A DNA stretch of 64,000 nucleotides from an uncultured Planctomycetaceae bacterium (GCA_963815195.1 CAWFGE010000008.1:320001-384000); one strand, 5' to 3'. Shown: positions 22,086 to 55,869, numbered from the stretch's first letter. The notes: generated by a model from the letters alone, not told the origin. Translations and numbers: made by a program.

Positions 22086-22865
22086 ATGTCTCAAACTTCG
22101 CGCCCAGCCGAGGAAGTCCCCATCGACCGCATCGCCCCCACGCGGCGGCCGGCCGGACGCTGCCGGGGCTATCAAAACTGGCGGTCGCTATTGTTCATGC
22201 ACTGGCCGGTTCCGGTGCAGACGATGCGGAGTCTGGTGCCTTCGGAATTGGAATTGGACTTGTACAAAGGCGAAGCCTATGTGGGCGCGGTGCCGTTCGC
22301 GATGGAAGGCGTTCGCCCGCGTTGGTGGCCGAAGCGGCTGGCCTTCAACTTTTTGGAAACCAACGTGCGGACTTATGTGTCATATAGGGGCCGCCCGGGA
22401 GTTTATTTTTTCTCGCTGGAAGCGGCATCCGGGTTAGCCGTGCGGGCGGCCCGCAAGTTGTGGAGCCTGCCTTATTATCATGCCCAGATGAGCCTCGAAA
22501 CCAAGGGCGACGAAGTCCGGTATCAATCCCGCCGTTACCGGGGGAACGTACAGCACAAAGTCCGCTACCGCGTGGGTGAAAAGCTCGGCCTCTCGGAGCC
22601 GGGGACCATCGAGTTTTTTTTGCTCGAGCGTTATCTGCTCTTCGCCCCGCGAAAGGGGCACATCTACGCCGGCCAGGTGCATCACACACCCTATCCCGCG
22701 CAAAGGGCGGAGGTGTTGGAGTTGGAAGATGATCTGCTCGAAGCCGCGGGGTTTGGGGTCTGTCCCGGGCTTCCGACGTTGACGCATTACGTCGCGGGAG
22801 TGGATGTGGAGATTTTCGATCTGAAACGGCTCGCTCCCGCGTGCTCGCCGGGTGAATCGCCATGA
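22086..22865 (+). CDS. YqjF/DUF2071 family protein
   Basis: QNWRSLLFMHWPV, FLETNVRTYV, GVYFFSLEA, FLLERY. Confidence 0.85.
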   Translation: MSQTSRPAEEVPIDRIAPTRRPAGRCRGYQNWRSLLFMHWPVPVQTMRSLVPSELELDLYKGEAYVGAVPFAMEGVRPRWWPKRLAFNFLETNVRTYVSYRGRPGVYFFSLEAASGLAVRAARKLWSLPYYHAQMSLETKGDEVRYQSRRYRGNVQHKVRYRVGEKLGLSEPGTIEFFLLERYLLFAPRKGHIYAGQVHHTPYPAQRAEVLELEDDLLEAAGFGVCPGLPTLTHYVAGVDVEIFDLKRLAPACSPGESP

Positions 22866-23860
22866 GCGATTTTCTGGATGCGCTGCGGGCCGGGCTCGAT
22901 GCGTTTGATCTCAAAGGCCGGCGGGTGCTGGCGGCAGTTTCGGGCGGGGCCGACAGCGTGGCTTTGTTGTGCGGCCTTGCGGAACTCTGCGCCGAGCTTT
23001 CCCTCGAACTCGGCGCGGCGCATTTGGATCATCGCTTGCGGGGAGAAGAGTCGGCCGCGGATGCTGTTTGGGTCGGGGAACTTTGCGATCGATTCAAGAT
23101 TCCCTGCGTCATCGAATCGCGGGATGTCAGGTCCCTCCACGCGGAAACCAAGCAGACGCTGGAAGAATCCGCCCGCCAGGCGAGATACGATTTCTTGAAG
23201 CGGACCGCCATCGCCCAAGGCTCGACTGCAATCGCCCTCGGACACACCGCGGACGACCAGGCCGAGACGGTGCTGCATCACATCCTCCGGGGCACCGGCC
23301 TCGCGGGACTCCGGGGCATTCCCCGCGAGCGAGAAATTTCCGCCGGCCTGCGGTTGATCCGCCCGCTACTTAACATCCGCCGGTCCGAGATCGAAGGCTG
23401 GCTCGCGGAGCGCGGGCAGGATTACCGCACCGATGCCAGCAACATCGATCCCACCTTCACCCGTAATCGGCTAAGGCATCAACTGCTGCCTCTTCTGGAA
23501 AAAGACTTTAATCCGCAAGTTATCCCGGCGCTATTACGGCTCCGCGAGCAAGCCGCAGAGATGGAGGACGTGCTCGATCAGTTCGCGGAAGAAGAACTCC
23601 GGCAGGCGGTCATCGAGCGATCGCCGCACCGCTGCCGGCTCCGCTGCGAATCCCTCGCCGCCCGCCCGCCCGCGTTCCGCCGAGTGTGTTTTACCCTTCT
23701 TTGGCGAGAGCAAAACTGGCCCCGCGGGCGGATGACCTTCGCCCACTGGAACCGCCTCGCCGACCTCGTCGCCCAAAACCGCGGAGCCCTCAGCCTCCCG
23801 GGCGGCCTCACCGCCCGCCGCCGCAAGGACGGCCTCACTGTGGAATGGCAAGCCGAATGA
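22862..23860 (+). CDS. tilS: tRNA(Ile)-lysidine synthetase
   Basis: AVSGGADS PP-loop, HLDHRLR, EESARQARY, GHTADDQAETVL, RPLL, D.SN...RNRLR. Confidence 0.95.
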   Translation: MSDFLDALRAGLDAFDLKGRRVLAAVSGGADSVALLCGLAELCAELSLELGAAHLDHRLRGEESAADAVWVGELCDRFKIPCVIESRDVRSLHAETKQTLEESARQARYDFLKRTAIAQGSTAIALGHTADDQAETVLHHILRGTGLAGLRGIPREREISAGLRLIRPLLNIRRSEIEGWLAERGQDYRTDASNIDPTFTRNRLRHQLLPLLEKDFNPQVIPALLRLREQAAEMEDVLDQFAEEELRQAVIERSPHRCRLRCESLAARPPAFRRVCFTLLWREQNWPRGRMTFAHWNRLADLVAQNRGALSLPGGLTARRRKDGLTVEWQAE

Positions 23861-23977: not shown

Positions 23978-25105
23978 ATGTACCGGGAAATCTCTATCAC
24001 CAACTTTCGCGGATTTCCAAAGTTCCGCATGCACGACTTGGGGAGAGTCAACCTGCTTGTGGGAACAAACAACAGTGGGAAGTCAACGCTTCTTGAGGCA
24101 ATTGAACTGCTTTCGTCGTTTGGTAATCCACGATCCCTTTGGGCCGTTACATCCCGTCGCGGAGAACAAATCTGGTACGATGATAGACGACGAAAGAGAG
24201 AAGGAGCAGTAGCGCATTTGTTTCATGGCCATGAGATCGAACTAGGAAGTGAATTCAGCGTCAGAGGAAACCATCACGACTTCGTAATAGACACCTTCGT
24301 GTCGAAAATTGGCGAAAAACACGGAGCACAAAAACAACTAACCCTCTTTTCGTCACCATCGCCATCTCCCTCCCTTGAGTTTAGCGAGGAGTACATAGGC
24401 CCCTATTCTTTGATAATGGAATGGAAGTTTGAAAATCGAGGAAATAGTGCATTCCGCTCCGCCTTAACAGCCAGGGGAGGGCTTCCTTTTGATGACGTGA
24501 TCGCATTCCATCGAACTGGCAACAGCAATCCGCCTGTGCGATACATCACCACGTCGTCGATGTCCGTCGAACAAGTCGCGAGACTCTTTGATGACATCGT
24601 TTTAACAAATGAGGAAGCTGTCCTTATTGATGCGCTAAAAACCATCGAACCGTCGATTGAACGAATCGCCAGTTTAGGCAGCGAATCGCGGCGATCCTCG
24701 TCCAGCCGCGGCAATATCGTCTTAAAGTGCAAGGGCATCGATCAGCGAATCCCGATTGGCACGATGGGCGACGGCATCTGGAGGATGCTAGGCATTGCGA
24801 TTGCCTTGGTCACGGCGGAGAATGGGTTTCTTCTAGTGGATGAAATCGACACGGGGCTTCATTACTCCGTGATGGCGGACATGTGGCGGCTCGTTGAGCG
24901 AACGGCCGCACGGTTGAACGTGCAGGTTTTTGCGACGACGCATAGTCGCGATTGTTACGAAAGCCTTGCGACAATTGCCCGTGAATCCGTCACGGAAGAT
25001 AGCCAAGTTACGATACAAAGAATCGAGAGAGACAAATGCGAGACCGTTGCGTTCAACGAGCGTGACATTGTCATTGCCGCCGAACGTGGACTTGAGGTGC
25101 GTTAA
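23978..25105 (+). CDS. ABC-type ATPase (AAA_15/AAA_21), lower GC than flanks
   Basis: ITNFRGF start, Walker A GTNNSGKST, signature MGDG, Walker B LLVDEIDTGLH, H-loop ATTHS. Confidence 0.9.
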   Translation: MYREISITNFRGFPKFRMHDLGRVNLLVGTNNSGKSTLLEAIELLSSFGNPRSLWAVTSRRGEQIWYDDRRRKREGAVAHLFHGHEIELGSEFSVRGNHHDFVIDTFVSKIGEKHGAQKQLTLFSSPSPSPSLEFSEEYIGPYSLIMEWKFENRGNSAFRSALTARGGLPFDDVIAFHRTGNSNPPVRYITTSSMSVEQVARLFDDIVLTNEEAVLIDALKTIEPSIERIASLGSESRRSSSSRGNIVLKCKGIDQRIPIGTMGDGIWRMLGIAIALVTAENGFLLVDEIDTGLHYSVMADMWRLVERTAARLNVQVFATTHSRDCYESLATIARESVTEDSQVTIQRIERDKCETVAFNERDIVIAAERGLEVR

Positions 25106-29480: not shown

Positions 29481-29592
29481 GACCTGAGCCTTTTTGTTGT
29501 TCGTCGAACCAGAAGGTCGTGCAGCCCTTCAAGATTCTAATCAATTTTCTGCGGGCGAGCTAACCCCTGAAGTGCCGCCGGGCGGCGCGCGA

Positions 29593-29702
29593 TGTCCGCC
29601 GGGAATCGAATCGGGCACCGCCCGAAGGATGGTCCTACGAGCTTCACGAAGCCTGCGGCTCGGTGCCCGAGCCAGGGCGTTCTGCCGTTTGCCGACCGAG
29701 CC
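29593..29702 (-). pseudogene. Chimeric or degenerate tRNA: Leu-like 5' half joined via mini-repeats to a T-arm of another tRNA
   Basis: 5' GGCTCGGTCGGCAAACGGCAG D-arm and 3' TTCGATTCCCGGCGGAC; acceptor halves do not pair. Confidence 0.55.
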
Positions 29703-29716
29703 GATTGTGTTTTCAA

Positions 29717-29790
29717 TACCCAGAGCAGGAATCGAACCTGCAAACACTCGGGTTTAAGCCGAGTCGCTCTGCCAGTTGGCGTATCTGGGC
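29717..29790 (-). tRNA. tRNA-Leu(TAA), short variable loop
   Basis: GCCCAGA/TCTGGGT acceptor; CTCGG-CT TAA AC-CCGAG; GCAGG TTCGATT CCTGC. Confidence 0.85.
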
Positions 29791-29802
29791 CTATTCTTTC
29801 AG

Positions 29803-29874
29803 TAGTCCCGGACGGAATCGAACCATCGTTTCCTGGACGTCAACCAAGCGTCGTCACCATTGGACCACGGGACT
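29803..29874 (-). tRNA. tRNA-Val(GAC)
   Basis: AGTCCCG/CGGGACT; CTTGG-TT GAC GT-CCAGG; GATGG TTCGATT CCGTC. Confidence 0.85.
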
Positions 29875-29882
29875 GAATTAAG

Positions 29883-29980
29883 TGGACCCACCCGGAATTG
29901 CACCAGGGCACCGATGGGCCGCAGGCGGGATTGATCCTCCGGCCTGCGACGCCGGCATCTTCCTGTTGGACGATGAGCCC
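29883..29980 (-). tRNA. tRNA-Ala(CGC) with ~30-nt insertion in the variable region (possibly pseudo)
   Basis: G3:T70 acceptor GGGCTCA/TGGGTCC; CCGGC-GT CGC AG-GCCGG; inserted mini-element at 29906-29937. Confidence 0.7.
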
Positions 29981-30008
29981 CTTTGGCAAGCGAAGGTTTG
30001 CTCGCAAG

Positions 30009-30079
30009 CACGCCCCCAAGGACTTGAACCCTGACCAACTGGGTTGGAGCCAGTCATGCTGCGATGACACCAGAGGCGT
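30009..30079 (-). tRNA. tRNA-Trp(CCA)
   Basis: ACGCCTC/GGGGCGT; ACTGG-CT CCA AC-CCAGT; CAGGG TTCAAGT CCTTG. Confidence 0.85.
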
Positions 30080-30090
30080 GTGTTGTTGAG

Positions 30091-30175
30091 CGGAAGCCGT
30101 GAGACTCGAACTCACAAGCGGTTTACGCCGCCACCTGTTTTCAAGACAGGCTCCTCATCCGGCCGGATGACTTCC
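30091..30175 (-). tRNA. tRNA-Ser(TGA)
   Basis: GGAAGTC/GGCTTCC; CCTGT-CT TGA AA-ACAGG; long variable arm GCGG-CGTAAA-CCGC; G73. Confidence 0.9.
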
Positions 30176-30184
30176 GATTTTTAG

Positions 30185-30217
30185 CTGCGGGAGTTGAATC
30201 GAACCAACGGTTTCCTG
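30185..30217 (-). pseudogene. 3' half of a tRNA (T-arm plus acceptor 3' strand), 5' half missing; possibly Gln
   Basis: CAGG AAACC GTTGG TTCGATT CAAC TCCCGCA G; upstream sequence is not tRNA-like. Confidence 0.6.
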
Positions 30218-30361
30218 AGATGGAGGGATGGAGCAATTTGATAGACGAATTGCCGATACATCTTCCGATCGAATTGCCAGACTGGCGAGAAGAAATCAAT
30301 GCAGCCTAGCCTGACGATGAAACGCTTGTTCTTTTCAAACGAGGACAGGAAACTTGAAAGG

Positions 30362-30436
30362 CTGCGGAGGCAGGAATCGAACCTGCGTCTGGGCGATTAA
30401 CAGTCGCCTTCCCGTACCAACACAGGACCCACCGCA
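30362..30436 (-). tRNA. tRNA-Asn(GTT)
   Basis: TGCGGTG/CTCCGCA; GGCGA-CT GTT AA-TCGCC; GCAGG TTCGATT CCTGC. Confidence 0.85.
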
Positions 30437-30462
30437 GAATTATGAAACCGTCAATGGCGGAG

Positions 30463-30547
30463 TCAGGATGGTCGGGACCAATCCGGACTTCGGCCGATCG
30501 GTGCCCGAACCGGCGGTCGGCGGATGACCAGACTTTCCCATATCCTG
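30463..30547 (-). pseudogene. Disrupted tRNA-Pro-like gene (mini-element in T-loop, anticodon arm lost)
   Basis: CAGGATA/CATCCTG acceptor resembling Pro (C1:G72, A73); T-loop interrupted by 30475-30506. Confidence 0.6.
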
Positions 30548-30555
30548 AAATCGAA

Positions 30556-30626
30556 AGCGCCCAGCGGGAGTCGAACCCGCAATTCCGCCATGGCAAGGCG
30601 GTAGGTTTCCGCTACATCATGGGCGC
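30556..30626 (-). tRNA. tRNA-Gly(GCC)
   Basis: GCGCCCA/TGGGCGC, T73; CCGCC-TT GCC AT-GGCGG; GCGGG TTCGACT CCCGC. Confidence 0.85.
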
Positions 30627-30638
30627 GGCTTGATTGAG

Positions 30639-30711
30639 TGGGACCGGAGGGGCTCGAACCCTCACCGAACCGGTTAAGAGCCGGTCATGCTGCCGCTAAC
30701 ACCTCGATCCC
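30639..30711 (-). tRNA. tRNA-Lys(CTT)
   Basis: GGGATCG/CGGTCCC; ACCGG-CT CTT AA-CCGGT; GAGGG TTCGAGC CCCTC. Confidence 0.9.
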
Positions 30712-30728
30712 GTGTTGATATTCTTGAT

Positions 30729-30800
30729 TGAGCCTGGATGGAGTCGAACCATCGTCTGGCCCTTATAAGGAGCCGGCTCTGACCGTTGAGCTACAGGCCC
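30729..30800 (-). tRNA. tRNA-Ile(TAT)
   Basis: GGGCCTG/CAGGCTC, A73; canonical D-arm TAGCTCAACGGTCAGAGC; GGCTC-CT TAT AA-GGGCC. Confidence 0.9.
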
Positions 30801-30815
30801 TTTTTCGTTTGGCAA

Positions 30816-30887
30816 TGAGGCCGGAGGGATTTGAACCCCCACCGTGCAGGTTAAAAGCCTGCTGTGCTCCCGTTACACCACGACCCC
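30816..30887 (-). tRNA. tRNA-Lys(TTT)
   Basis: GGGGTCG/CGGCCTC; GCAGG-CT TTT AA-CCTGC; GGGGG TTCAAAT CCCTC. Confidence 0.9.
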
Positions 30888-30951
30888 GGAATTGATCGTG
30901 GCGTCTGTTTCCATCGCTGCAAAAAAAACATGAGATAGCCTCTCGGAAAAG

Positions 30952-31024
30952 TAGCCCGGGAAGGAATCGAACCTTCATTTCCGCCTTATCAGGGCGGCGT
31001 CCTAAACCATTGAACGACCGGGCT
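30952..31024 (-). tRNA. tRNA-Ile(GAT)
   Basis: AGCCCGG/CCGGGCT; CCGCC-CT GAT AA-GGCGG; GAAGG TTCGATT CCTTC. Confidence 0.9.
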
Positions 31025-31102
31025 AATTGGTGAATTGTAAGTCGGGATGGCCGGACTCGAACCGGCGACTCCGTGCTCCCAAGGCACGTGGGGTGCCGCT
31101 CG

Positions 31103-32571
31103 CCACCCCTTTCAACATGTTAGATTTTTGCTATAAGTCGCTTCTACAGGGATTGTTGTATCAAACCTTATGGAGGCGGCAAGGATGTGGCCCGACGCTG
31201 TGCTTGATCGTTTTGTGGAAGAATGTCCAGCGGCAGTGATGGTTCGAGCAACGCTCGAGAATCTTGTGTCGCCGGATCGACTGGATGAGATTTTCGCCGA
31301 CGCTTCGCAGAGACAATACGAGAAAGAATTGCTGTTTTCGCAAGTGGTGGCCCTGATGATGGGCGTGGCGACGCGGACGCACACGTCGGTCCATGCCGGG
31401 TACTTGGCCGCCAAGGAGCAACTGGCGGTTTCGCCGGCCGCACTTTATGGCAAGTTGAACCGTCTGGAACCCGGCCTTTCGGCGACGATGATCCGGGAAA
31501 CGAGCCAGGACGCGGCTCAAGTCATCGATGCCATGCCGGGAGCATGCCGCGAACTTTTGCCGGGCTATCACGTGCAGTATTTGGACGGGAATCATTTGGC
31601 GGCGACTGAGCATCGGCTGGCGGAATTGCGCGTCACGCGGGAAGGCCCTTTGCCGGGCCAGACCTTGGCGCTTCTGGACGCGCAGCGGGATCTGATTTCG
31701 GAACTGCTCCCGTGTGAAGACGGGCATGCTCAGGAACGTTCGCTTCTGCCGGAGCTTCTGGAATGGATCCGGGCCGAGACGGTGACAATCGCCGACCGGA
31801 ACTTCTGCACGACCAAGTTTCTGTTTGGAATTGTCAAGCAGTCGGCCTACTTTGTCATTCGCCAACACGCTTCGACACTCACCTGGAAACTCGTCGGTCG
31901 CCGGAAACGCATCGGACGCATCGAAACGGGTCTTGTTTTCGAGCAGTCGGCCGAGCTGTCCCAGGGTGAAGAGACGTTGCGAGTCCGGCGGATCACCATC
32001 CAATTGGATACGCCCACAGAGAATGGTGACACTGAGATTCACATCCTGACCAACTTGCCTGTCAAAGTCGCCAATGCGCGAAAAGTGGCTTTTCTGTATC
32101 GCAAGCGCTGGACGATTGAAGAAGCCTTCCAAACTCTGACCGAGGTGTTGCGCTGCGAAGTGGAGACGCTGGGCTACCCCAAGGCGGCGCTGTTCGCCTT
32201 CGCCACGGCGGTTTTGGCTTATAACACCTATGCCGTGGTGAAAGCGGCGCTGCGATCGGTTCACGGTGAAGAAACGATCGATGAAGAACTGTCGGACTAC
32301 CACCTGACGCAGGACGTGACTGCCACGACGGTGGGCATGAACATCGCCGTGGACGCGGAAATCTGGGAGGGCTATCAAATCATGCCACCTCGAAAACTCG
32401 CGATCGAGTTGGTGCGACTCGCGAAACGCATCGACCTGACGCGTTACCCCAAAAAGAAACGCGGGCCGAAAAAACCACAGCCTCGAAAAAAGAGCGGCAA
32501 ACGGAATCACCATATCTCCACCGCGCAACTCTGGCCAAATCCAGGGGTAAGTGACATGTTGAAAGGGGTGG
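31103..32571 (+). mobile_element. IS4-family insertion sequence
   Basis: Perfect 18-bp terminal inverted repeats CCACCCCTTTCAACATGT (31103-31120, 32554-32571); flanking direct repeat GTGCCGCTC; single DDE transposase. Confidence 0.9.
31170..32554 (+). CDS. IS4-family DDE transposase
   Basis: LDG, IADRNF, Y(RK)RWTIEEAF YREK-like motif; true stop probably TGA 32552-32554 after an indel near 32533. Confidence 0.85.
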
Positions 32572-32602
32572 GTGCCGCTCCCCTACATCCCGAGTTGTCA
32601 AA

Positions 32603-32692
32603 TAGCCCGGACCACGCTGCGGGCGCTGCCCGGAGTCGAACCCGATCCCAACCGAGTTTCGTAAACTCAGTGCCACATCCCGTGGACAGGCC
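32603..32692 (-). pseudogene. tRNA-Arg(ACG)-like gene with mini-element in the 3' T-stem
   Basis: CTGAGT-TT ACG AA-ACTCGG; TTCGACT loop; insert 32609-32631. Confidence 0.65.
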
Positions 32693-32701
32693 AGGTTGCA
32701 G

Positions 32702-32771
32702 TAGCCCGAAGTGGAGTCGAACCACTCAACCAACCTTCGGAGGGTTAGGGCCAGAATCCGCTGGCCGGGCC
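32702..32771 (-). tRNA. tRNA-Arg(CCG), atypical compact fold
   Basis: GGCCCGG/TCGGGCT; CTAACC-CT CCG AA-GGTTGG; AGTGG TTCGACT CCACT; 70 nt. Confidence 0.7.
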
Positions 32772-32810
32772 ATGATGGTGTTTTTGCTAGTGTTGTTGAA
32801 CTTGCCGAAG

Positions 32811-32883
32811 TACCCCGTAGGAGAATTGAACTCCTATCTGCGGATTGAAAGCCCGCGATCCTAAACCGTTAGACGAACGGGGC
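32811..32883 (-). tRNA. tRNA-Glu(TTC), first gene of the array
   Basis: GCCCCGT/ACGGGGT; GCGGG-CT TTC AA-TCCGC; AGGAG TTCAATT CTCCT. Confidence 0.9.
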
Positions 32884-32913
32884 AAGTTGAAGGTTTCGAT
32901 GTTTGAGGCGGCG

Positions 32914-32943
32914 AAAAAACCCGATGCCATTCGTGACACCGGG
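32914..32943 (-). terminator. Intrinsic terminator immediately upstream of the tRNA array
   Basis: CCCGGTGTCA-CGAA-TGGCATCGGG (10 bp including 2 GU pairs) followed by TTTTTT. Confidence 0.8.
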
Positions 32944-32976
32944 CTTCTGATGGTTCCACAGAAATGCCGCCGAGTG

Positions 32977-33078
32977 TCACAGACGCAGGGGACGCGCGGG
33001 CCGAATGTCCGCCGATTGGGGGGCGAGACGGCCATCGCGTTTGCGTTTTGAAGTGAGACTCGACCCCAAGGACATCAT
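32977..33078 (-). promoter_or_regulatory. Putative leader-peptide ORF of an attenuator (MMSLGSSLTSKRKRDGRLAPQSADIRPARPLRL*)
   Basis: AGGA/GGA purine-rich stretch before ATG; stop TGA lies within GTGACAC, which is complementary to the terminator 5' arm. Confidence 0.6.
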
Positions 33079-33293
33079 TTTTCCGGTTTCCTGTTTTTGG
33101 CCTCCGTGGGCCATTGGTTTGTTGTTCTGCCAGGATAGACGCCCACGCCGGGAGGAGGTTCGGATCTTTTTCGCGGCATGGGCTATTCCCTGTACGCGAT
33201 AACCATCGGCTTTATTCGCAAATGTCGGAGAAAAAAGGTGTCCCTCAAGTTCAGTACTTCCAAAAAAGCTCAGGAAATTGGTTTGGTTTTCAA

Positions 33294-33358
33294 GAGCCGC
33301 GCACGAAGTAAGCGGTTTCAGGGACTCAGACCGCAAGACCGCACTTCGTGCGCGGCTC
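33294..33358. repeat. REP-like inverted repeat; related half-copy at 39849-39870
   Basis: GAGCCGCGCACGAAGT ... ACTTCGTGCGCGGCTC; CCGCTTACTCTGTGCGCGGCTC at 39849. Confidence 0.75.
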
Positions 33359-33744
33359 AGGCCTTTCTTTTTTTGGAACGACTGAAGTTGAAAATCGCCT
33401 CGCATCAGACGCTTCCCCACCCGGCCGCTACCGCGTCCGACCTCCCAAGGGGAGGTGAAAGAGCACACAAGATATTCTTTAACACCATCGTAGTTGGCCC
33501 CCTCATTAGCCGGAAGAACCGGTTTTTGGTAATAAATAAGGCAGTGGCGACGAACTCGACCCGGCGCTGTCGTCCCGAAAGTGAAAGCACCGAGAGAAGG
33601 ATCCAAACTATGTCGAACTGGATGCGCTGGGCAGACAATCCGAACGCGATCGGCTGGCAGTTTGGCAATGTTGAACAGATCGAGTAAATCGAAAACAGGG
33701 TTCCGGTTTCGAGCCCCCCCCGATGCCATCGGCTTTGATCTCCC

Positions 33745-34974
33745 GTGCATATTTTGTTCGTCCATCAGAATTTCCCAGCTCAGTTCGGGCACATCGCCGC
33801 GCACTTGGTCCGCGAACAGGGATTTCGATGCACGTTTCTTTCGGAACGGCCGGGCGGATCCACCGCGGGGATCGAGCGGATTCAATACCAGACAGCGGGC
33901 GGCGCCACTGGGCGGACGCATTATTGCAGCCGGAAATTCGAGAACCAGGTCTGGCACTCGCGCGCCGCGTTCGAGGCCCTCAAAGCCCGGCCGGACATCC
34001 GGCCGGATCTCATCGTCGGCCATTCGGGGTTTCTGTCCACGCTTTATCTCCGCGAGCTCTACGATTGCCCGATCATCAATTACTTTGAGTATTTCTACCG
34101 CACGCGGAACTCGGATCTGGACTTCCGCAAAGACTTGCCTCCATGCAGCGAGCTGGACCGGCTCCGCGCCCGGACCCGCAACGCCATGCTGCTTTTGGAT
34201 CTGGAAAATTGCAATGCGGGATACGCCCCCACAAACTGGCAGCGGGATCGGTTGCCCGAGGTCTTTCATCCGAAGACGCGGGTGATTTTCGACGGCGTGG
34301 ACACCGCCGTTTGGCGGCGGCAGGAAACGGGGAATCGCAAAATCGGCGGGTGGGACTTGCCGGAGACCATGCGGGTCGTGACCTACGTGAGCCGGGGCCT
34401 GGAAGCGATGCGCGGCTTCGATGTGTTTATGAAGTTGGCCCATCGGTTGTGCGGTTTGCGGAAGGATGTTTTGTTTGTTGTCGTCGGTGAAGACCGCATC
34501 GCCTACGGAGGCGACCAGCGCTACACCGAAGGCAAAACGTTCAAGCAATGGGTTCTGTCCCAAGAGAACTACGATCTCAACAGAATCCTGTTCCTGGGCC
34601 GGCTGCCACCGCCGGAACTGGCAAAGCTGTTTTCCCTGAGCGACCTGCATATCTATTTGACCGCGCCGTTTGTGTTGTCGTGGTCGCTGATGGATGCTTT
34701 GGCCTGTGGAGCCACCGTCCTCGCGTCCGACGTGGGACCGGTGCGGGAGATGGTTCGGCACGAAGAAAACGGTCTGCTTGTCGATTTCTTCGATTTGGAG
34801 GCGATGGTCGATTTAGCCGGCCGGGTCTTGGATGATCCCGCGGCGTTTCGGCCGCTCGGTGTGCGTGGCACGGAAATGATCCGGGAACACTACAGTGTGG
34901 AACAATGTCTGCCCCAGATGCTCGCTCTCTACCGCGAAACCCTCGAACAATCCGGCCGCAGCGAAGAGGCTTGA
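33745..34974 (+). CDS. Glycosyltransferase family 4
   Basis: HILFVHQNFPAQF, SRGLEAMRGF, YLTAPFVLSWSLMDALACG, VLASDVGPVRE. Confidence 0.85.
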   Translation: MHILFVHQNFPAQFGHIAAHLVREQGFRCTFLSERPGGSTAGIERIQYQTAGGATGRTHYCSRKFENQVWHSRAAFEALKARPDIRPDLIVGHSGFLSTLYLRELYDCPIINYFEYFYRTRNSDLDFRKDLPPCSELDRLRARTRNAMLLLDLENCNAGYAPTNWQRDRLPEVFHPKTRVIFDGVDTAVWRRQETGNRKIGGWDLPETMRVVTYVSRGLEAMRGFDVFMKLAHRLCGLRKDVLFVVVGEDRIAYGGDQRYTEGKTFKQWVLSQENYDLNRILFLGRLPPPELAKLFSLSDLHIYLTAPFVLSWSLMDALACGATVLASDVGPVREMVRHEENGLLVDFFDLEAMVDLAGRVLDDPAAFRPLGVRGTEMIREHYSVEQCLPQMLALYRETLEQSGRSEEA

Positions 34975-41710: not shown

Positions 41711-44700
41711 CTAAATCTCCAGGAGCAGCCAGTCCAAATCGCCGGCGAAGGCTTCATCATGCAGGTCGGTCACGCGGTCGCCGTCCTCATTGAGATTGAA
41801 CCAGAACCAATCGTCGCCCACGGAACCGGTGAGAACATCGGCGGAGCCGTCCCGTTGGACCGTGGTTTGATTGAGGACGACCGGCGCGCTCTTATCGCTC
41901 AGCGTGTTTATCCGCTCGGAATAAGTCAGATCCGTTCGCGTCCAGACAAGCATGACGAGGTTCAGCAACGAGGGAATGCGGTCGTAAATGATCGAACCGG
42001 CAATGAGGATGTCATCATCGGTGTTGCCCATGATGCGGTCGGCGTCCGGTGCCGCCAATTTCCAGATCCCGGCCGGCTCCTCCCAAAAGAAGGTCTTCGC
42101 CCGCACCGCCCAGGAGGACGTCATTGCCCGCTCCGCCTTTGAGCCGGTCATCGCCGGTGTCGCCGTAGAGCCACGCGGAAATCTCGACGTTCGCGCTAAC
42201 TTGGACATCATCATCTCCAGCCTGGCCGAAGACCACCAGTCGCGTGAGCATACCCGGCGGAACGGCGTAATGCGCGGTGGCCACGTCCACGGTGATCCCG
42301 TCGATCTGGCGCGTCAGTTCCAGATCGAATCCGGTCGCCGTCGCCTGAAACACGCCGACGAGCGTCTCCTGACTCGTCGAGGACAGCGGCGAATCCACCG
42401 TGGCGGTCAACGATCCCGAGGCCAAATGCCGCGAAAGGTCGCCCGAGAGTTGAATATCATCGGCTTCCAGCGTCCCGCCGACGGTCAATGTGTATTGGCC
42501 GGCGTTAAGCGGATCGTACTGAAGCGCCATTTCGGCGATGGTGATCCGGCCGGAGATCGAGGTCTCGACGCCGTGATCGTCCCGCACGGTGAGTGTGACC
42601 AGATACTCCCCGGCCGCGGTGAAGATGTGCGTCGGCGTAAACGCGCCCCCATCGGCGATCGAATGGAAGTCGATCACGGTCCCATCGCCGAAGTCCCACC
42701 GCACCAGTTCGGGCGTATGCGGTCCCGGAAACGTGATCGCTCCCGTGAAGGAGAGTTCCTGCCCGCGGACGCCGGAGAAGCCGGCCTGGTCCACGTTCAA
42801 TTCGGGACCGGAGAGCGAGAGCGTCAACGGCATGGCGACAACGTGAAGGCTAAAGAAAGCCGGTTGGCTGATGCCGCCGTCATCGTCCGCGACCACGAGA
42901 GACAGCACAAAGTCGCCGAGCGCATCGGGAGTGAAGTCGAATGTCGCCGCATCGACGATGGTTCCGGTCGGCAGGGCGTAAGGCAGGCCGTCTTTTATCA
43001 CGCTCCAGGCATAGCTGCTGGTGTCGGCGGTGCCGGGATCGTCGAAACTCGCCTGATATGTCGACTCCCGTGCGATGACCAAACCGTCATCCCCCAGGAT
43101 GGCGACGTTCTGCGGGGCGACGTTGTTGACGAACACGGTCACGGTGCCGCTCGCTTGCCCGCCGTCGTCGTCAGTGACGCTGAACGTGATCTGATAGGTG
43201 CCGTTGTCGGCGGGGACGAAATCGTAGCTCGCCCCCGTCGCCCCGGGAACGGTTTGTCCATCGATGGCCCATTGGAAACTGTGGGTATCGCTGCCGGGAT
43301 CTGTGAAGACGCCCGTCAGCATCAACGAGCTGCCTTCATCAAGGAACACCTGATTTTGGCTGCGGTCGCCCGCAGTGTCTGGGCCGATGAGCACGTCCAC
43401 ATCTTGCGGAGCGACGTTGTTGACTCGAATCGCCGCATCGATCGTTTGCATGCCGTCCACCAGGACCACGAGCGGGAACACATCGGGTCCACCGGAGGGG
43501 TCATCCCCATAGACATGGGACGTGAGGAACCGTGCGGTGGCGGAATCGAACACGGCCTGCGAGGTTTGCCCGTCGCCCCAAGCAATCTCGACAACTTCGT
43601 TGCCCGTCGCGTTCGTCAGCGCGACCGATGCGCTCACCCGGCCGCCTTCGTCGACGTCCGTTTGATCCAACCGGAGATGAACGTCGCCCTCGACAAAGTC
43701 CGCACCGCCGCTGGGATCCAAAAACACATCGCCTTCGGCGGCCCGAAATGCCACCACCTGCTCGCTGCCGCTGCTGCCGAACAATTTGTCCGCCCCGGCT
43801 CCGCCAATCAACACGTCGCCCGCCGGCTGCCCAGAGGCCGAGGGCTGTTCCGTCGGCGTTGTCTTGTACAAGAACAACTCGTACTGCCCCTGGTCGGTGT
43901 CGGTCACGCCGGTGTGGGCGGGATTGGCGGCCGCAAACGCATCCACGTCGAAGTTGGGTTCGTAAACGCCGAACTCCGGCGAATAAAAACGGAACGTGTC
44001 CACCTCGACGTAATAAACTCCATCCGCCGGCAAGATCACATCGAGTAACAGAGAATCGGTCGATTCGATGTTGTCATCGTTGAAGGCTCCCAAGGGACTG
44101 CCGTAATAATCCAGTTTATTCCCGTTCGAATCGTAGAGCCGGAGCAGGGAATCGATGGGATTGGCAATGCGATCGAGCGTGCTCGAATAGAGTTCCAGCG
44201 TGACCACGTCCCCGGCGCGGCCTTGGAAGGCATAGAAGTCGCTTTCGCTGTGGCCGGTGGCATCGAGGACAATTTCCCCAGCCACGTTCAACGTCGAGAC
44301 CATCCGATCGCCGCCCGCCAGGGGAACATTCATCATCTCGAGTTCGCCCAGATCCTGCGCCGCGTGCTGCGTCCCGCCGACGGTGATCGAATCAGACTTT
44401 TGTTCGTCGGGAAGTTCAATGGCCGTCCTGCCCGTCTCGGCGAAGGCCAGTTTGACGGATTCCCGTTCCCCGAAGTACGGATTGCCGACGGCATCGACGA
44501 GCGAAGTGCCCACCGACGCGGGCGACGCCAACAGATGCAAACGGGTCTCCACCGCAGATTCCGGCCCGCTGTAAGTCGGCAGGATGCGGTCGAATTTGAA
44601 GTTTGGAGACAGCCCGCTGCCGATCGGACCGAAGGCATCCTGATGCCGGAGTCCGAATTGGTGGCCCAGTTCGTGAGCGGCGATCGTGGAGGACAGGGCA

Positions 44701-47700
44701 ATGAAATGGTCGGACGTGCCCGGCAGCCGCTTCGGACCGAGAAAACCGTTGACATCCACAACGACGGTGCCGGAAAGACCCAAGAGCCGCCAGTTGAGCG
44801 ATTCCGCCCGGCCGCCCGGCTGCGCGACGCCGCCAATGATCGGCGTGGCATTGAAGAGCACCTGGAAGTAGCGGCCCGACTCGGGGCGGGTCTCTGTGAA
44901 CTGGATGTCAAACGCCCCGAAGTCGGCGGCCATCCGGGCCGCGATCGCATTCCGCTCCTCCGGCGAATAAACGTGCTCGCCCGAGTCGGTCGCCGAGTCG
45001 AAATCCAGATACACGAGCTTGGTGAAGTCGGACTGCAGAATGTCGTCGCCGCCCCGGCCGTCGAGGGTATCCGCGCCGCCTCGGCCGATGAGCTCGATTC
45101 GAGCGGTCGTTGCCGGCGATCACATCGGCGAAGGCGGTGCCGAACACGTCCTCCACGCCGCTGGGATCGTTGAGCGTCAGCGTCAGGTTGCCGCCGACGA
45201 TTTGCGCAACAGTAAGGCCCAAATCCAGCGTGACGCCGTTCGTGAACGCGTCGAAATCGAGCATATCCTCATCGAGATTCACGGCTTCGTTGATGGCGTC
45301 GTTTCCGCCGGCATCCGCGCCGAAATTGTAAACATCGCTGCCCGCGCCGCCGTCGAGCACATCATTGCCCGCGCCGCCGTCCAAGGTATCGTTTCCGATG
45401 CTGCCGATCAGAACATCATCGCCCCCGCCGCCCACCAAAGCCACGTTGCCGCTGAAGGCCGAAGCGTTCAAAACGTTGTTATGCTCCCCGCCCGTGAGCT
45501 CGACCCCCTCAAAGCCGTCCAGCGGGATGACGGTGCTGCCGAGGGTCAGCGAGTTGTTATTGAGGACGAGGTCGGCGTCGGCGTAATAGAGGAACCAGTC
45601 GGTGCCGGTTCCGGTGCCGTCCACGTTGTCGCCGAAGTATCGATCCTGGCCGCGGCCAACGATGCGATCGTCGCCTTCGCCGCCGACGATGAGATTGGCC
45701 CCGCCGGTGCCGAAGATCAGATCGTTCCCGTCCCCGCCGAACAGCGTGTCATCGTCGGTCGCGGTGGTGGTGTCGTTGCCGTCGCCGGCGTAGAGCGTGT
45801 CGTCTCCCATGCCGCCGTCCAGCGAATCGTTCCCGTCGCTGCCGATGAGGGTGTCGTTGCCCATGCCGCCGTCGAGGGACTCGTTGCCGTCGCCTCCGAC
45901 AAGCGAATCGTTTCCGTCGCCGCCCATCAGCGTATCATCGCCCGTACCGGCATCGAGAGAATCCTCCCCGCCGCCGGCACTTAATGTGTCGTTGCCCGCG
46001 CCGCCGTCGAGCGAATCGTTGCCGCCGCCGCCGAAGATCAAATCGTTCCCGTCGCCGCCGAAGAGCGTATCGTCGCCGTACTCGTTTGTGTCGGTGCTGT
46101 CGCCGTTGCCCTCGCCCGCAATCAGCGTGTCGTTGCCCATGCCGCCGTCGAGCGAATCGTTGCCGTCCCCGGAGACCAGCGTATCGTTGCCGTCCGCGCC
46201 GGTGAGCGAATCGTTCCCCGAACCGCCGTCGAGGGTGTCATTCCCCACCCCGCCATCCAGCGAATCATTCCCGCCGCCGCCGAAGATCAGGTTCGCTTCC
46301 TCGTTGCCGCTGAGGTTATCGGTCTGCCCGGAACCGAGGACGTTCTCAAACGTGCCCTTGAGCGTGATCGTGTCGCCGCCGTCTGTGGCGGTTTGAGGCG
46401 CATCGGTCGCCCCCAAATCGAGCGTGACGCCTTCGTCCACGGCGGCGAAGCTGATGGTGTCGTTGCCGTCGGCCCCACTTTCATCAAGAACCTTGTCGCT
46501 GAAGCCCAGAATAAGGTACAGATCGTCTCCAGCCCCGCCGACCAGGCTGTCGTTGCCAAGGCTGGTGAGGGTGTCATTGCCGGCCCCGCCGACCAGCGTA
46601 TCGTCCCCCGAACCGCCGTCGAGGTAATCGTCCCCCGAACCCATGACGACGAAATCGTCGCCGGCCCCGGCGAACACGGCCACGGGGATTGTCACCGCCG
46701 AACTTATCGTCACAGTATCGTTGCCCGCGTCGGTCGCGATCAGAATCGCAATCGCCGGCCCGGTATCAATCGCCGGTCCCCCGTTGAAGATCACCGTGAC
46801 GGCCGTGGGATCGTCGGTCGTGTCGGCGGTGGGCGCGATGTCGATTCTGTCGTCCTGATCCCTGCCCCCGATGAACAAGACCTCGGCGTTGCCCTGCCCG
46901 CCGTCGTCGTCAACCGCGTTTAATATCACGCGGGCCACGCCGCCCGACGGCCGAGGAAAACTCAACGTGGATTGGTCGTCCGTCAGCCCCGTCAGCGGCA
47001 CCCCGTCAACCGTCACGGTCCAAGCATATTGATACGCCTCCGCCGGACTTGGATCCGCCACCACGGCCCGCAAGCGGACCGTCATGCCGTCGCTTCCATC
47101 GTCAACGACGTTCGGTTGCGGCGGGACGTTGGTCACGGTCGCGGACGACTGCTCGAGAACCGCCGCGCCGCTGGCATCGGTCACCGTGACCGACATCAGA
47201 TAATCGTCGCTCGCCGTCCCTGGGAGATTGTCGTCGGGGTATCGGTGCTTGACGGTAAAGCTCGAGACGCCCGCATTCAGAGTGAACGTCGTCTCGGGAC
47301 ATGATCGAACGAGAATCCCAACTCGCCGGGGGCAACGACCAGCGTATCGCTCGTCCCGTCCCCCCAATAAACGAACACCGTATGTTGATCGTCCGGATCG
47401 GGGGCTTCAAACAGGCCGTCCAAACGAAAATCGCGGCTCTCGGGCAGATCGAACGTGACCAGTCCGAATGCTGCTTCCGGGGCGGTGGTGGGCTCGAGGA
47501 TCGTGACGATCAAGCTGTCAGGCAAAATCGTGAGCGGCTGGCTGAAGTTTGCCGCCTGGGCCAGTGAAAACTCGCTGGTGCTTCCGCCGGCCGCGGTCGC
47601 GGTCGCAGTGACGGATTCCCCCGCGACCGTGTATGCGGAGAGCGTGACATCAAAGCCGGCGGCGCCCACAGAATTTGTGGTCACGCTCGTCGATCCAAGA

Positions 47701-53700: not shown

Positions 53701-55811
53701 CTCTCACCTGCGGCATAACTTTGTGCCGCCTGAAACGTGCCGTCGCCGTTGCCCACAAGGACGGAGATGTCGTCGCTGCCGCTCTCGGCCGTTGCCAGGT
53801 CGACCACGCCGTCGCGGTCAAAATCCGCGGCTGTCACGGAACTCGGAGGATTTCCGGTCGCGAAGTTCTGAGCCGGCTGAAACGTCCCATCTCCGTTCCC
53901 CACGAGAACGGAAACGTCGGCGCTCGTTTCATTTGCCGTGACGATGTCGATCGCATTGTCGCCGTTGACGTCGACCGTCACGACGGAATTTGGCTCATCA
54001 CCGGCGGCGAAACTTTGCGGTGTCTGGAACGTTCCATTTCCATTGCCCAACAACACCGAGACCTGACCGATACTTGGGTTTGCCGCGACCAGGTCGATGT
54101 CACCGTCGCCATCAATGTCCGCCGCCGCCACTGCCCGTGGACTGGTGCCGGCAGCAAAGTTCTGTGCCGCTCGGAACGCCCCGTCGCCGTTCCCGAGGAG
54201 GATTGAGACGTTGTGGCTGGCGACGTTGGCGATGGCGAGGTCGATCAGCCTGTCGCCATTGAAATCCCCCGTGACCCCGGCGACCGGGCCGCTACCGACG
54301 GCGATCGTTGAGAGTAAGGAGATGCCTTGAAGTAGCACCGTCACGCTGTTGGCGTTCGGGTTGATCGCGGCCAGATCGGTCCGGCCGTCCGCATTGAAGT
54401 CCCCCGCCACCAACGACTGCGGCCGCTGGATGACTGCAATCGTTTGAGCCGTCTGGAAGCTTCCATCGCCGTTCCCATACAGCAAGGAGATCGCCTTGTT
54501 GCCAAAAAGATCGGTGTTATTGAAATTGGCCGTGGCCAGGTCCGTCACGCCGTCGCCGTTGAAGTCTCCCACAACCACCTCTTCCGGATTCTCGTCGACC
54601 GCGATGTTCCGCACCGACACAAAGGTCCCATCGCCGTCCCCCAGGAGAACTGAGACATCGTCGCTGCCGGCGTTTGCGACGGCGACATCGATCACCGAAT
54701 CGCCGTTGAAGTCCCCCGTGGTCACCGACTGCGGTGTGTCGCCCGTTCCAAAACTCCGGGCCGCCTGGAACGTCCCATTCCCGTTCCCCAAGAGGACGGA
54801 GATGTCGTCGCGGGTATAGTTCGCCGTGATGACGTCGGTTGCCCCGTCGCCGTTGACATCCGCCGAGGTCACAGACCAAACGGCATTGCTGGCCGCGAAC
54901 TGCTGGGCCGACTGAAACGTCCCATCCCCGTTGCCGAAAAGCACTGCGACGGTGCCACTGGCAACGTTGCCGGTGATCAAATCGGTTGCGTTATCGTTGT
55001 TAAAGTCCCCCGTTGCCACGGACTGCGGGCTGTTGCCGGCAGAGAAGTTTTGCGCTGCTTGAAACGTGCCGTCGCCGTTGCTCAAAAAGACCGACGCCTG
55101 ACCGCTGCTGTAGCTCGCAACGGCGACGTCAGCCAGATTGTCGCCGTTGAAATCCCCGGCTGTCAGAGACCGCGGGGAGCCGAGCGTCCCGAAAGTCAAC
55201 GCTGCCTGAAACGACCCATCCCCGTTGGCGAAGAGCACCGACACGGTGCCGGTGTTGATGTTCGCTGTGGCGAGGTCGATGGCTCCATCATCGTTGAAAT
55301 CGCCGGTCGTCACCGACCGCGGGCCGTCTCCGACGGCAAAGTCAACCGCCGTCTGAAAGGTGCCGTCGCCGTTGCCCAACAGCACCGATACGCTGTCGCT
55401 GCTGTTATTGGCCACAGCCAGGTCGATCCGATTGTCGCCGTCGAAGTCCGCAGTCGTCACGGAATAGGGTGCATTGCCGACGGCGTAGTCTTGCGCCGCT
55501 TGGAACTTCCCATTTCCATTGCCCAAAAGCACGGAGACATTGGAACTGTTGAAGTTCGCGGTGACGAGGTCGCTGGCACCGTCGCCGTTGAAGTCGGCCA
55601 TCGCCACCGACAACGGTTGATCACCGACGTCGAATCGCGAATCCGGAAACAGCGGCTCGCCCGAAAGCAGAGTGCGATCCTCCAAGACTTCCGCGCCGAT
55701 CCAATGTTCCCGCCGTCGCCCGATGCGGCTTCGGCGGGCGTGGAAACGGCCTGCGTTGGTCTTTGTCCAAGAGATCGGGAGGGACCACAGCAATTGAAAA
55801 AAGCGATTCAT
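41711..55811 (-). CDS. Giant secreted multidomain protein (~4700 aa): LEPRxLL leader, FG-GAP repeats, parallel beta-helix, PA14-like, LamG-like, PKD-like, RTX Ca-binding repeats, metzincin motif, PPC-like; split at ~47300, ~45097, ~42045
   Basis: EVLEDRTLLS; DFNGDG.D.LA.AN; NVISGN/GNYIGTD; GGxGNDxL nonapeptides; HELGHQFGLRH; four consecutive same-strand ORFs. Confidence 0.85.
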
Positions 55812-55869
55812 TCTGAACCTCACGTTGCCGACTCTCGTGGAGGGACGCGCCGCCTGGCAAGACCGGCGG

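Follow-up and report, generated by a model that had tools for sequence, protein, structure and literature searches.

Composition and decay of the tRNA array

The window, a stretch of 64,000 nucleotides from an uncultured Planctomycetaceae bacterium, carries 18 tRNA-type units on its minus strand from 32883 to 29572, of which 11 look intact and 7 are broken or aberrant. The co-oriented array of about 18 tRNAs, one third of them damaged, that had been proposed from a first reading is therefore real, as seen with both ARAGORN and Rfam. ARAGORN reports 12 co-oriented tRNAs between 29717 and 32883 on this strand (97 in the entire 8.87 Mb genome), and the Rfam tRNA model finds 10 at its gathering score and three more with lax thresholds, namely Asn (39.3 bits), Ser (38.5 bits, through a Sec-like model) and an insertion-bearing Ala at 29883-29980 (29.2 bits).

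The order of units also stands as first read, including the marks of damage on Arg(ACG), Pro(TGG), the Pro-like unit, the remnant, Ala and the chimera. All units lie on the minus strand. The series opens with an intact tRNA-Glu(TTC) (32810..32883), recognized by ARAGORN, Rfam and an ortholog match. It is followed by a tRNA-shaped, Arg(CCG)-like unit with a cloverleaf-like fold (32701..32771), undetected by ARAGORN and by Rfam (E up to 10) and 94% conserved in a sister species, and by an Arg(ACG) unit (32600..32693) broken by a 22-nt micro-repeat at 32631-32610. The tRNA-Pro(TGG) is split into its 5' 23 nt (32570..32592) and a 3' part placed by ortholog alignment (31041..31101). Next come tRNA-Ile(GAT) (30951..31024), tRNA-Lys(TTT) (30816..30887), tRNA-Ile(TAT) (30729..30800), tRNA-Lys(CTT) (30638..30711) and tRNA-Gly(GCC) (30556..30626), all intact; all five are found by both ARAGORN and Rfam, and the Ile(TAT) gene is the only one with this anticodon in the genome. 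The Pro-like unit (30462..30548) is a Pro(CGG) pseudogene, its alignment to Pro(CGG) orthologs showing indels and its T-loop being degenerate. Beyond it lie a tRNA-Asn(GTT) of Gln-like build (30360..30436; 84% to the array Gln(CTG) on contig C5), a remnant consisting only of the 3' half of a Gln(CTG)/Gly(TCC)-type tRNA (30185..30209), a tRNA-Ser(TGA) with a long variable arm (30092..30175), an intact tRNA-Trp(CCA) (30008..30079; ARAGORN, Rfam), an Ala(CGC) unit with about 26 extra nt ahead of its T-arm (29883..29980), an intact tRNA-Val(GAC) (29802..29874; ARAGORN, Rfam) and a 74-nt tRNA with the Leu anticodon TAA and without the long variable arm (29717..29790). The last unit is a chimera (29572..29702) at the break point of the array; here the initial 22 nt of Leu(TAG) (29702-29681) are joined to unrelated sequence including a copy of the micro-repeat (29634-29613).

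Of the seven broken or aberrant units, an IS4-family element splits one, a micro-repeat of 21-22 nt is found in two, and the others are decayed or truncated. The insertion sequence (31102..32569, plus strand, 1.47 kb) sits in the D-loop of Pro(TGG) within an 11-bp target duplication, one copy of which forms the final 11 nt of the 5' fragment. Its transposase frame, open from 31170 on the plus strand, matches Pfam DDE_Tnp_1 and, under the model cut-off, NCBIfam IS4 (E 6e-30). The element is active, and 13 more near-full-length matches at 97-99% identity, as well as shorter ones, occur in the genome. It is oriented opposite to the array and separates the leader described below from 10 of the 11 intact tRNAs. 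An ARAGORN call at 31041-31119 has a false 5' half taken from the end of the insertion sequence. With this insertion, the micro-repeats, the truncations and a split into three pieces, decay and a role as insertion sink are supported for this genome. Two finer observations of the first reading carry less weight: encoded CCA is indeed lacking, but this is uninformative, as CCA occurs near the 3' end in 1 of 42 array tRNAs and in 5 of 55 others, and for the non-canonical D-arms said to be frequent, non-standard D-stem pairs are marked in 3 of the 9 tRNA alignments inspected (Rfam).

Distribution and redundancy of the array

The window holds the 5' third of an array of about 40 genes with a fixed, non-periodic order and no repeating unit. 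In this genome (G000) the array lies in three pieces, on contigs C5 (9 tRNAs), C8 (the window) and C12 (21 tRNAs), and uninterrupted arrays of the same order are present in G021 (39 tRNAs) and in G040, from another family (34 tRNAs). Of 151 genomes sampled from the class, at least 41 have a verified copy, as do at least 24 of 36 from the family; 151 genomes sampled across the phylum gave no verified case beyond the class. An L-array unit has been defined by a minimum of 20 tRNA genes and a density of 2 or more per kb (PMC4758250, available text); the window piece misses this threshold, with 12 ARAGORN calls (18 units) in 3.3 kb, and the C12 piece (21 in 2.2 kb) and the orthologous arrays of 39 and 34 genes reach it.

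The best matches of the window tRNAs are array orthologs in other genomes (85-100%), never a housekeeping tRNA, and their identity to the non-array gene of the same anticodon is only 61-71%, in agreement with the second tRNA set of the original prediction. Such a non-array copy exists for 11 of the 12 window anticodons, the exception being Ile(TAT); that case apart, the array mostly supplies supernumerary isodecoders, not new anticodons. In 15 tRNA families, canonical pairs fill 95.3-99.7% of alignment cells, and 5-17 pairs per family have changed on both sides. The suggestion that this second set is dispensable is weakened by such compensatory maintenance of the cloverleaf and by the retention of the module across the family. 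The same maintenance argues against a rather improbable explanation, according to which an old transfer left the array behind as a silent relic. The leader ORF would then be a stand-alone small gene with its own terminator, and any tRNAs the product of leaky read-through. That explanation would account for the broken third of the window units and for the gaps in the three pieces, in none of which an intact Pro, or any Met, Gly(TCC) or Ser(GGA), is present. It also agrees with the view, in the available text of PMC4807772, of planctomycete clusters as degenerate, horizontally acquired and possibly dispensable.

The genomic sites of the array vary between genera and even within a genus, flanking genes are not conserved and several copies per genome occur. 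With its spread over the class, the array gives the impression of being old and of having moved many times, more than of the sprinkled distribution that points to horizontal transfer of L-arrays. In G021 and G040, the array includes an HNH endonuclease ORF between its His and Trp genes, and in G017 a homolog adjoins a single array-type tRNA match; the window array has no such ORF, homologs in G000 being elsewhere on C8. Together with the changing sites and the multiple copies, these ORFs could indicate that the array is mobile-element cargo, which a phage or the HNH homing endonuclease would transport and which would serve the element instead of the host. We consider this very unlikely, as no integrase, phage or plasmid genes are common to the array surroundings, phage and plasmid collections yield only matches the size of a single tRNA (at most 6% of the query), none of 14 viral-contig pattern matches is a leader with an array, and the module is confined to one class in the samples searched.

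On C12 of this genome, as in G026, the array is closely followed at its 3' end by a Ro60/Rsr gene and by YrlA-like RNAs that include a tRNA-like domain; in G003, a Ro60 remnant occupies this position. The YrlA matches score 31.9-45.9 bits, under the Rfam gathering score of 69, and the Rsr match is far under the NCBIfam cut-off.

The conserved leader upstream of the array

Directly upstream of the array lies a conserved leader (33161-32913). The 30 top loci of a leader covariance model fall in 30 genomes of several families, and all 30 are followed by a co-oriented tRNA array; leader and array were verified in 11 further genomes. The C12 piece lacks the leader. An association this constant, despite unconserved flanking genes, speaks against the array as a silent relic. 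The first tRNA starts no more than 164 nt after the model match at all 30 loci and within 36 nt at 20 of them, leaving little or no space for a separate promoter.

The leader begins with a promoter motif (33136..33161, minus strand) in which GAACCT (33161-33156) and CGTCTA (33141-33136) form AAC-N16-CGT, spanning 33160-33139, and this block is conserved upstream of arrays. We take it to be of ECF type, assuming a consensus in which AAC (-35 region) and CGT (-10 region) are separated by about 16 nt. The pattern AAC-N14-19-GTC[TA]A occurs 155-249 nt before the stop codon (21 cases at 155-216 nt) in 22 of 36 leaders, compared with 32 of 540 control windows; it is missing from the other 14 leaders, and no sigma gene is conserved beside the array loci.

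Downstream of the motif, an ORF of 33 codons plus UGA (32977..33078, minus strand) ends in P-L-R-L-stop, followed by C. In 69 leaders defined without reading-frame information, this frame is open for 30 codons in 68, the other two in 30 each, and 55 have an in-frame ATG 28-40 codons upstream. At the amino-acid level, the peptide is best conserved in its last three codons and their UGA-C context: among 63 leaders, Leu at -3 is kept in 54 (codons CTG, TTG, CTC and CTA), Arg at -2 in 59 (CGC, CGT, AGG and CGA) and the terminal TGAC in 62. No run of regulatory codons is seen in the leader ORFs, the only strongly conserved codons being those for Leu, Arg and Leu before the stop.

The end of the ORF overlaps a set of competing RNA strands, all on the minus strand. 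Region 3 (32933..32944) and region 4 (32913..32928, with the U-tract) are the 5' and 3' arms of a predicted intrinsic terminator 29 nt upstream of tRNA-Glu. Region 2, GUGACACUCGG (32970..32980), contains the UGA stop and would form the 5' strand of an antiterminator with region 3 as alternative partner. In a fold of the naked window transcript, the partner of region 2 is a candidate region 1 (33053..33064, codons 5-9 of the ORF). The hairpin was missed by a simple terminator scan; in the alignment, 99.3% of its cells are paired, 5 of 10 pairs show compensatory changes and none of 500 shuffles equals it. In transcripts ended before the 3' arm, the stop-codon region pairs with the 5' arm in 36 of 36 minimum-energy folds, at least 6 of the 10 arm bases being paired in 26 of 36 leaders. 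The mean antiterminator energy is -17.8 kcal/mol, against -10.4 for shuffles (z -2.9) and near the terminator mean of -18.5; for the window itself, the two forms reach -21.6 (antiterminator) and -26.6 kcal/mol (terminator). Pairing of the antiterminator is 78.4% in a fixed register and 27-44% when slid, and its covariation is not above that of shuffles, 54 of 500 reaching the same level. For regions 1 and 2, the partner lies 24-34 codons upstream more often than in shuffles (38 of 51, compared with 41%), and the amount of pairing equals that of shuffles (6.9 and 6.8 of 13 bases). The UGA stop lies inside the strand complementary to the terminator 5' arm in 62 of 63 leaders, a placement that a plain gene-end terminator does not need and that speaks against a stand-alone small gene.

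The conserved end of the peptide could also be read as an arrest sequence. TnaC and similar arrest peptides work at a UGA stop, and the ribosomal exit tunnel is about as long as the leader ORF, so that L-R-x-UGA-C might stall the ribosome at the stop in response to a ligand, an antibiotic or the level of a release factor. In that case, the switch would respond to a specific signal instead of the overall speed of decoding, possibly with a polarity opposite to that proposed below. The concentration of conservation in the last three codons and UGA-C favors this possibility, which we nevertheless judge improbable: UGA-C is also demanded by the RNA pairing GUGAC:GUCAC, which explains part of its conservation without arrest, and the array loci show no link to a ligand, a resistance gene or a release-factor gene.

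A putative attenuation switch and its relation to known systems

The leader sequence predicts control of the array by trp-type attenuation. Transcription would start, likely, at the ECF-type promoter; a ribosome that reaches the stop codon would cover region 2, so that the terminator forms and the array stays off. If the ribosome were delayed within the ORF by tRNA shortage or damage or by translation inhibitors, region 2 would remain free and pair with region 3. This pairing would block the terminator and activate a second tRNA set of divergent sequence. In this genome, Glu and the two Arg-like units are probably still controlled by the switch, and the insertion sequence may isolate it from the ten intact genes downstream. 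We propose, with a probability of roughly 60%, that the window carries the initial third of a spare-tRNA array conserved in planctomycetes whose leader is predicted to admit transcription only when ribosomes stall in a 33-codon mini-gene. The original prediction of a dispensable, inducible second set in decay is thus partly upheld: the second set and its decay as an insertion sink hold, dispensability is put in doubt, and inducibility is inferred from the conserved promoter, leader and attenuator, which that reading had missed.

A wider generalization is conceivable though doubtful, namely that this is an emergency tRNA generator throughout the Planctomycetia, in which a stall-reporting leader peptide gates a complete second tRNA set as a chromosomal defence against tRNA damage and translation poisons. 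If so, the emergency set would include the only tRNA-Ile(UAU) of the cell and tRNAs that have Leu anticodons and lack the long variable arm, and would be followed in some genomes by Y-RNA-like genes and Ro60.

The array itself corresponds to published objects, the degenerate planctomycete clusters of many partly degraded tRNAs to which the canonical tRNA-Ile(UAU) is confined (PMC4807772, available text). The available text of that report describes neither a conserved gene order nor a leader, and "promoter" and "leader" are absent from its S2 Text; what is new here is the upstream promoter, leader and attenuator, and a literature search found no published leader attenuator before tRNA arrays. 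The L-array (trn operon) of Anabaena sp. PCC 7120, silent by default and induced when translation is impaired (PMC8421152, PMC10272220, available text), is likewise a long, non-periodic, supernumerary array that adds isodecoders rather than anticodons, and it adjoins a homing endonuclease gene. Its control relies on the repressor TrcR at the -10 box, whereas the elements predicted here are an ECF-type promoter motif and a leader ORF with a terminator and antiterminator; "leader", "terminator" and "attenuat" are absent from the available text of PMC10272220. The two also differ in phylum, and the present array is chromosomal and fragmented.

Bacterial RNA-surveillance loci combine rsr with Y RNA (YrlA). 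The array ends on C12 and in G026 and G003 resemble them, and nothing of the kind occurs in the window.

In the trpL, hisL and pheL attenuators, the end of a short ORF overlaps region 2, and a region 2:3 antiterminator competes with a region 3:4 terminator. The array leader shares this overlap, this competition and a possible 1:2 pairing, but it differs in having tRNAs instead of enzymes behind the switch, no single-codon run and a conserved C-terminus, L-R-x-UGA-C. Three features that characterize a leader-peptide attenuator are found in its sequence: a short ORF, predicted to be translated; an intrinsic terminator directly ahead of the tRNA genes; and a predicted antiterminator that shares one strand with the terminator and whose other strand a terminating ribosome would cover.

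Units of the array, their orthologs and their redundancy

ARAGORN called 12 tRNAs in the window, all on the minus strand (29717-32883), and the Rfam tRNA model gave 10 matches at its gathering score; lax thresholds added Asn (39.3 bits), Ser (38.5 bits, Sec-like model) and a 98-nt Ala-type match (29883-29980, 29.2 bits). As the entire source genome, G000 (8.87 Mb, 25 contigs, the window being C8:320001-384000), holds 97 ARAGORN tRNA calls, the presence of 12 of them inside 3.3 kb represents a density far beyond chance. The units were resolved by reading the sequence and by comparing each gap with the array tRNAs of relatives, which yielded 18 units, identical in kind and order to those of the original prediction. 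Eleven look intact, namely Glu(TTC), Ile(GAT), Lys(TTT), Ile(TAT), Lys(CTT), Gly(GCC), Asn(GTT), Ser(TGA), Trp, Val(GAC) and Leu(TAA). The other seven are an Arg(CCG)-like unit with a cloverleaf-like fold missed by every tool, an Arg(ACG) with a 22-nt insert, a Pro(TGG) split by an IS, a decayed Pro(CGG), a remnant consisting of a 3' half only, an Ala(CGC) with ~26 extra nt, and a terminal chimera whose opening 22 nt are those at the start of Leu(TAG).

A DNA search in 40 relatives, followed by ARAGORN on the fetched loci, identified similar arrays within the genus, elsewhere in the family and in further families, with one gene order common to the fetched arrays. In the relative G021 a single array comprises 39 tRNAs: Phe, Glu, Pro(TGG), Ile(GAT), Lys(TTT), Ile(TAT), Lys(CTT), Thr, Gly, Pro(CGG), Asn, Gly(TCC), Asn, Gln, Gln, Ser(TGA), Ala, Val, Leu(TAA), Asp, Leu(CAA), Tyr, Glu(CTC), Leu(CAG), Met, Met, Leu(GAG), Val, Thr, Ala, Ser, Arg, Ser, Arg, His, Trp, Thr, Arg and Arg. 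The same order is found in the 34 tRNAs of G040, from another family. The window array is the 5' third of this shared-order element. Two further pieces lie elsewhere in G000, one of 21 tRNAs on contig C12 (C12:573209-575422), opening with Trp, Val and Leu(TAA) as a 78% identical duplicate of the end of the window array, and one of 9 tRNAs on contig C5 (C5:30370-31947). Combined, the three pieces lack an intact Pro, as well as Met, Gly(TCC) and Ser(GGA).

The window tRNAs are 85-100% identical to their array orthologs, and their best match is never a housekeeping gene. A non-array copy exists in G000 for 11 of the 12 window anticodons, at 61-71% identity to the array gene, and the array is indeed the second tRNA set that had been proposed. 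The exception is Ile(TAT), the array member being the sole tRNA-Ile(UAU) gene of the genome. A protein with the N-terminal domain of TilS (tRNA-Ile lysidine synthetase) is encoded 6 kb from the array (22862-23860, plus strand); because this gene is present, AUA is probably also read by the usual route, and G000 probably has two routes for reading this codon. CCA is as a rule not encoded, in the array and in other tRNAs alike.

Considering ARAGORN-called genes only, the cloverleaf is kept across the class in 15 array tRNA families, where 95.3-99.7% of cells are canonical pairs and 5-17 pairs per family have changed on both sides. Array tRNAs with the Leu anticodons TAA (13/13), CAA (10/10) and GAG (6/6) measure 74-81 nt and have no long variable arm, for example at 29717-29790 in the window, at the C12 locus L035 and at further array loci; their pairing is maintained through compensatory changes. 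The long arm is present in array Leu(CAG), Ser and Tyr and in every housekeeping Leu tRNA. Anticodons vary among close orthologs when the window array is compared with six fetched loci (L023, L024, L026, L028, L029 and L036), with Val GAC/CAC, Ser TGA/CGA and Leu TAA/CAG (90% identical) as examples. In addition, the 77-nt Asn(GTT) of the window is 84% identical to the array's Gln(CTG).

Decay and genomic surroundings

The IS (31102-32569) encodes a DDE_Tnp_1 transposase (Pfam; the NCBIfam IS4 match, E 6e-30, is under the cut-off) and is flanked on both sides by an 11-bp duplication of tRNA-Pro positions 13-23. It looks recently active, since G000 contains 13 further near-full-length matches at 97-99% identity; shorter ones are also present. 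Its transposase frame (31170-32864, plus strand) is stop-free inside the element and extends about 100 codons past it, through the Arg-like units and into tRNA-Glu. A micro-repeat of 21-22 nt, built of GACCAC, a short hairpin and GGTGCC, has 69 matches in G000 under a strict pattern, of which many are identical and a part are probably due to chance. Several copies sit within array tRNA genes: copies are found in the chimera (29634-29613), in Ala(TGC) of the C12 array (C12:574440) and at C5:30755, and a reversed variant lies inside Arg(ACG) (32631-32610). The decay put forward in the original prediction is thus borne out for G000 by the IS split, the micro-repeat inserts, the truncated units and the division into three pieces. 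Two short repeat families (~145 nt and ~90 nt), present in great numbers on almost all contigs of G000, occupy 33240-33540, directly upstream of the leader, the segment preceding tRNA-Glu. A 594-aa ORF (32977-34761) was rejected as a gene; it matches no Pfam family, and its 3' part looks spurious because it overlaps the leader and these two abundant repeats.

No protein genes common to the array surroundings across genera were found on either side. The downstream neighbour of the window array is mtnA, whose orthologs in four relatives (G001, G002, G003 and G021) have no adjoining tRNA and flanks unlike those of the window. In the arrays of G021 and G040, tRNA-His and tRNA-Trp are separated by an HNH endonuclease ORF (L027:12002-12841, L032:13131-13727), and G017 has a homolog next to a lone array-type tRNA match (L012:1533-2135). 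Other homologs are found in G000 away from the arrays (C8:292676-293269, and a frameshifted one at C8:492571-493163). Directly past the array 3' end, a Ro60/Rsr-like gene is present on C12 of G000 (L035:10835-13464) and in G026 (L030:2255-4438), and a C-terminal remnant occupies the same place in G003 (L023:7283-7554); YrlA-like RNA matches between array and gene reach 31.9-45.9 bits, for a gathering score of 69. The window also encodes an AAA_15/AAA_21 ATPase of the abortive-infection-system kind (23978-25105, plus strand), and, at a greater distance, very large RTX/PKD-repeat proteins and a 2899-aa ORF (42015-55976, minus strand). A phage or plasmid origin was considered and rejected: phage and plasmid searches returned single-tRNA-sized matches only, and none of 14 pattern matches in viral contigs was a leader with an array.

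A leader conserved across the class

Conservation within the genus covers the 340 nt that precede the first tRNA, and this segment can be aligned across families; it matches no Rfam family. It carries GAACCT (-35, 33161-33156) and CGTCTA (-10, 33141-33136), giving an AAC-N16-CGT motif that we take to be of the ECF type and that occurs at a fixed distance in 22 of 36 leaders vs 32 of 540 controls. Before the array, a simple consensus scan returned neither a sigma-70 promoter nor the leader terminator; no sigma factor gene was found near the arrays across genera. A 33-codon ORF follows (33078-32977), ending in P-L-R-L-UGA, with its stop codon inside region 2 (GUGACACUCGG, 32980-32970). Next come the 5' arm of the terminator (region 3, 32944-32933), its 3' arm (region 4, 32928-32919) and a U-tract (32918-32913), 29 nt past which tRNA-Glu starts (32883).

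Among 69 leaders picked without regard to reading frame, 68 are open over 30 codons in frame 0, vs 30 in each of the other two frames, and 55 have an ATG 28-40 codons upstream. The end of the ORF is conserved through synonymous codons, with Leu at -3 in 54/63 leaders (CTG, TTG, CTC or CTA) and Arg at -2 in 59/63 (CGC, CGT, AGG or CGA), and the stop context is TGAC in 62/63.

A covariance model built from 8 leaders was searched against 151 genomes of the class. Behind each of the best 30 loci, one per genome, lies a co-oriented tRNA array with the shared order (30/30). Co-oriented tRNAs follow 10 of the 20 borderline matches (23-39 bits), 8 lack any tRNA and 2 are ambiguous; with these 10 and G051, also confirmed by extra checks, the leader is verified in at least 41 of the 151 genomes, and in 24 of 36 in the family. 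Matches at E up to 0.01 occur in 90 of 151 genomes, a figure that overstates the spread because the weak ones are mixed. Those at C8:158347 in G000 and in G171 are plain terminators. Across a phylum-wide sample of 151 genomes, just one match with E up to 1e-6 fell outside the family, and it too is a plain terminator. Named genome records were also screened with a pattern; read with two small contigs labelled Kuenenia left out, this screen gave 39 loci with a tRNA downstream among 80 fetched, and these 39 all carry a Planctomycetota label (Pirellulaceae, Planctomycetaceae, Thermoguttaceae, Lacipirellulaceae, Schlesneria, Fuerstiella and Stieleria). Matches in Streptomyces and similar genomes were dismissed as chance hairpins.

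A predicted attenuator and its known counterparts

The terminator is paired at 99.3%, with compensatory changes in 5 of 10 pairs, and none of 500 shuffles was as good. All 36 minimum-energy folds of transcripts ending ahead of its 3' arm join the stop-codon region to the 5' arm, and in 26 of these folds 6 or more of the 10 arm bases take part. The mean energy of this antiterminator is -17.8 kcal/mol, vs -10.4 for shuffles and close to the -18.5 of the terminator. In a fixed register its helix is paired at 78.4% vs 27-44% when slid; its covariation was not above that of shuffles. The window leader's own folds are consistent with such an antiterminator/terminator pair. Folded naked at full length, the window leader pairs region 2 with codons 5-9 of the ORF and forms the terminator. 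Region 2 has a partner 24-34 codons upstream in 38 of 51 leaders vs 41% in shuffles, the amount of 1:2 pairing being no more than in shuffles.

From these elements we infer the layout of a trp-type attenuator. A ribosome reaching the stop codon would cover region 2 and let the terminator form; one delayed within the ORF would keep region 2 uncovered and able to capture region 3, so that RNA polymerase would enter the tRNAs; and without translation, 1:2 pairing may bring termination back. The state sensed would be slow decoding. The conserved predicted switch argues for the inducibility originally proposed for the set, the dispensability proposed with it being doubtful. In G000 the switch may no longer reach most of the set, since the IS, in opposite orientation, separates the leader from 10 of the 11 intact tRNAs and the C12 piece has no leader.

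For the purpose and silencing of long spare tRNA arrays in bacteria, the array of Anabaena, with its protein repressor, is to our knowledge the only worked example. A leader-peptide switch before the planctomycete arrays, if true, would couple tRNA supply directly to ribosome stalling, through a simple mutable element consisting of a start codon, a stop codon and three hairpin strands. What makes the finding valuable is the class-wide leader, by which the control of spare tRNA arrays becomes directly testable. Moreover, the fixed order makes scattered "degenerate clusters" one datable element, whose decay, splitting and IS insertions can be compared across genomes.

The array itself is of an already known kind: a 2016 paper described "degenerate tRNA gene clusters" of planctomycetes that include a canonical Ile-UAU (PMC4807772), and L-arrays are listed for the phylum in PMC8421152. 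No leader ORF or attenuator before tRNA arrays was found in the literature covered. The sensing of slow decoding would fit a set that is spare and divergent in sequence, as well as the induction by translation stress demonstrated for the Anabaena array (PMC8421152); that array is under the repressor TrcR (PMC10272220).
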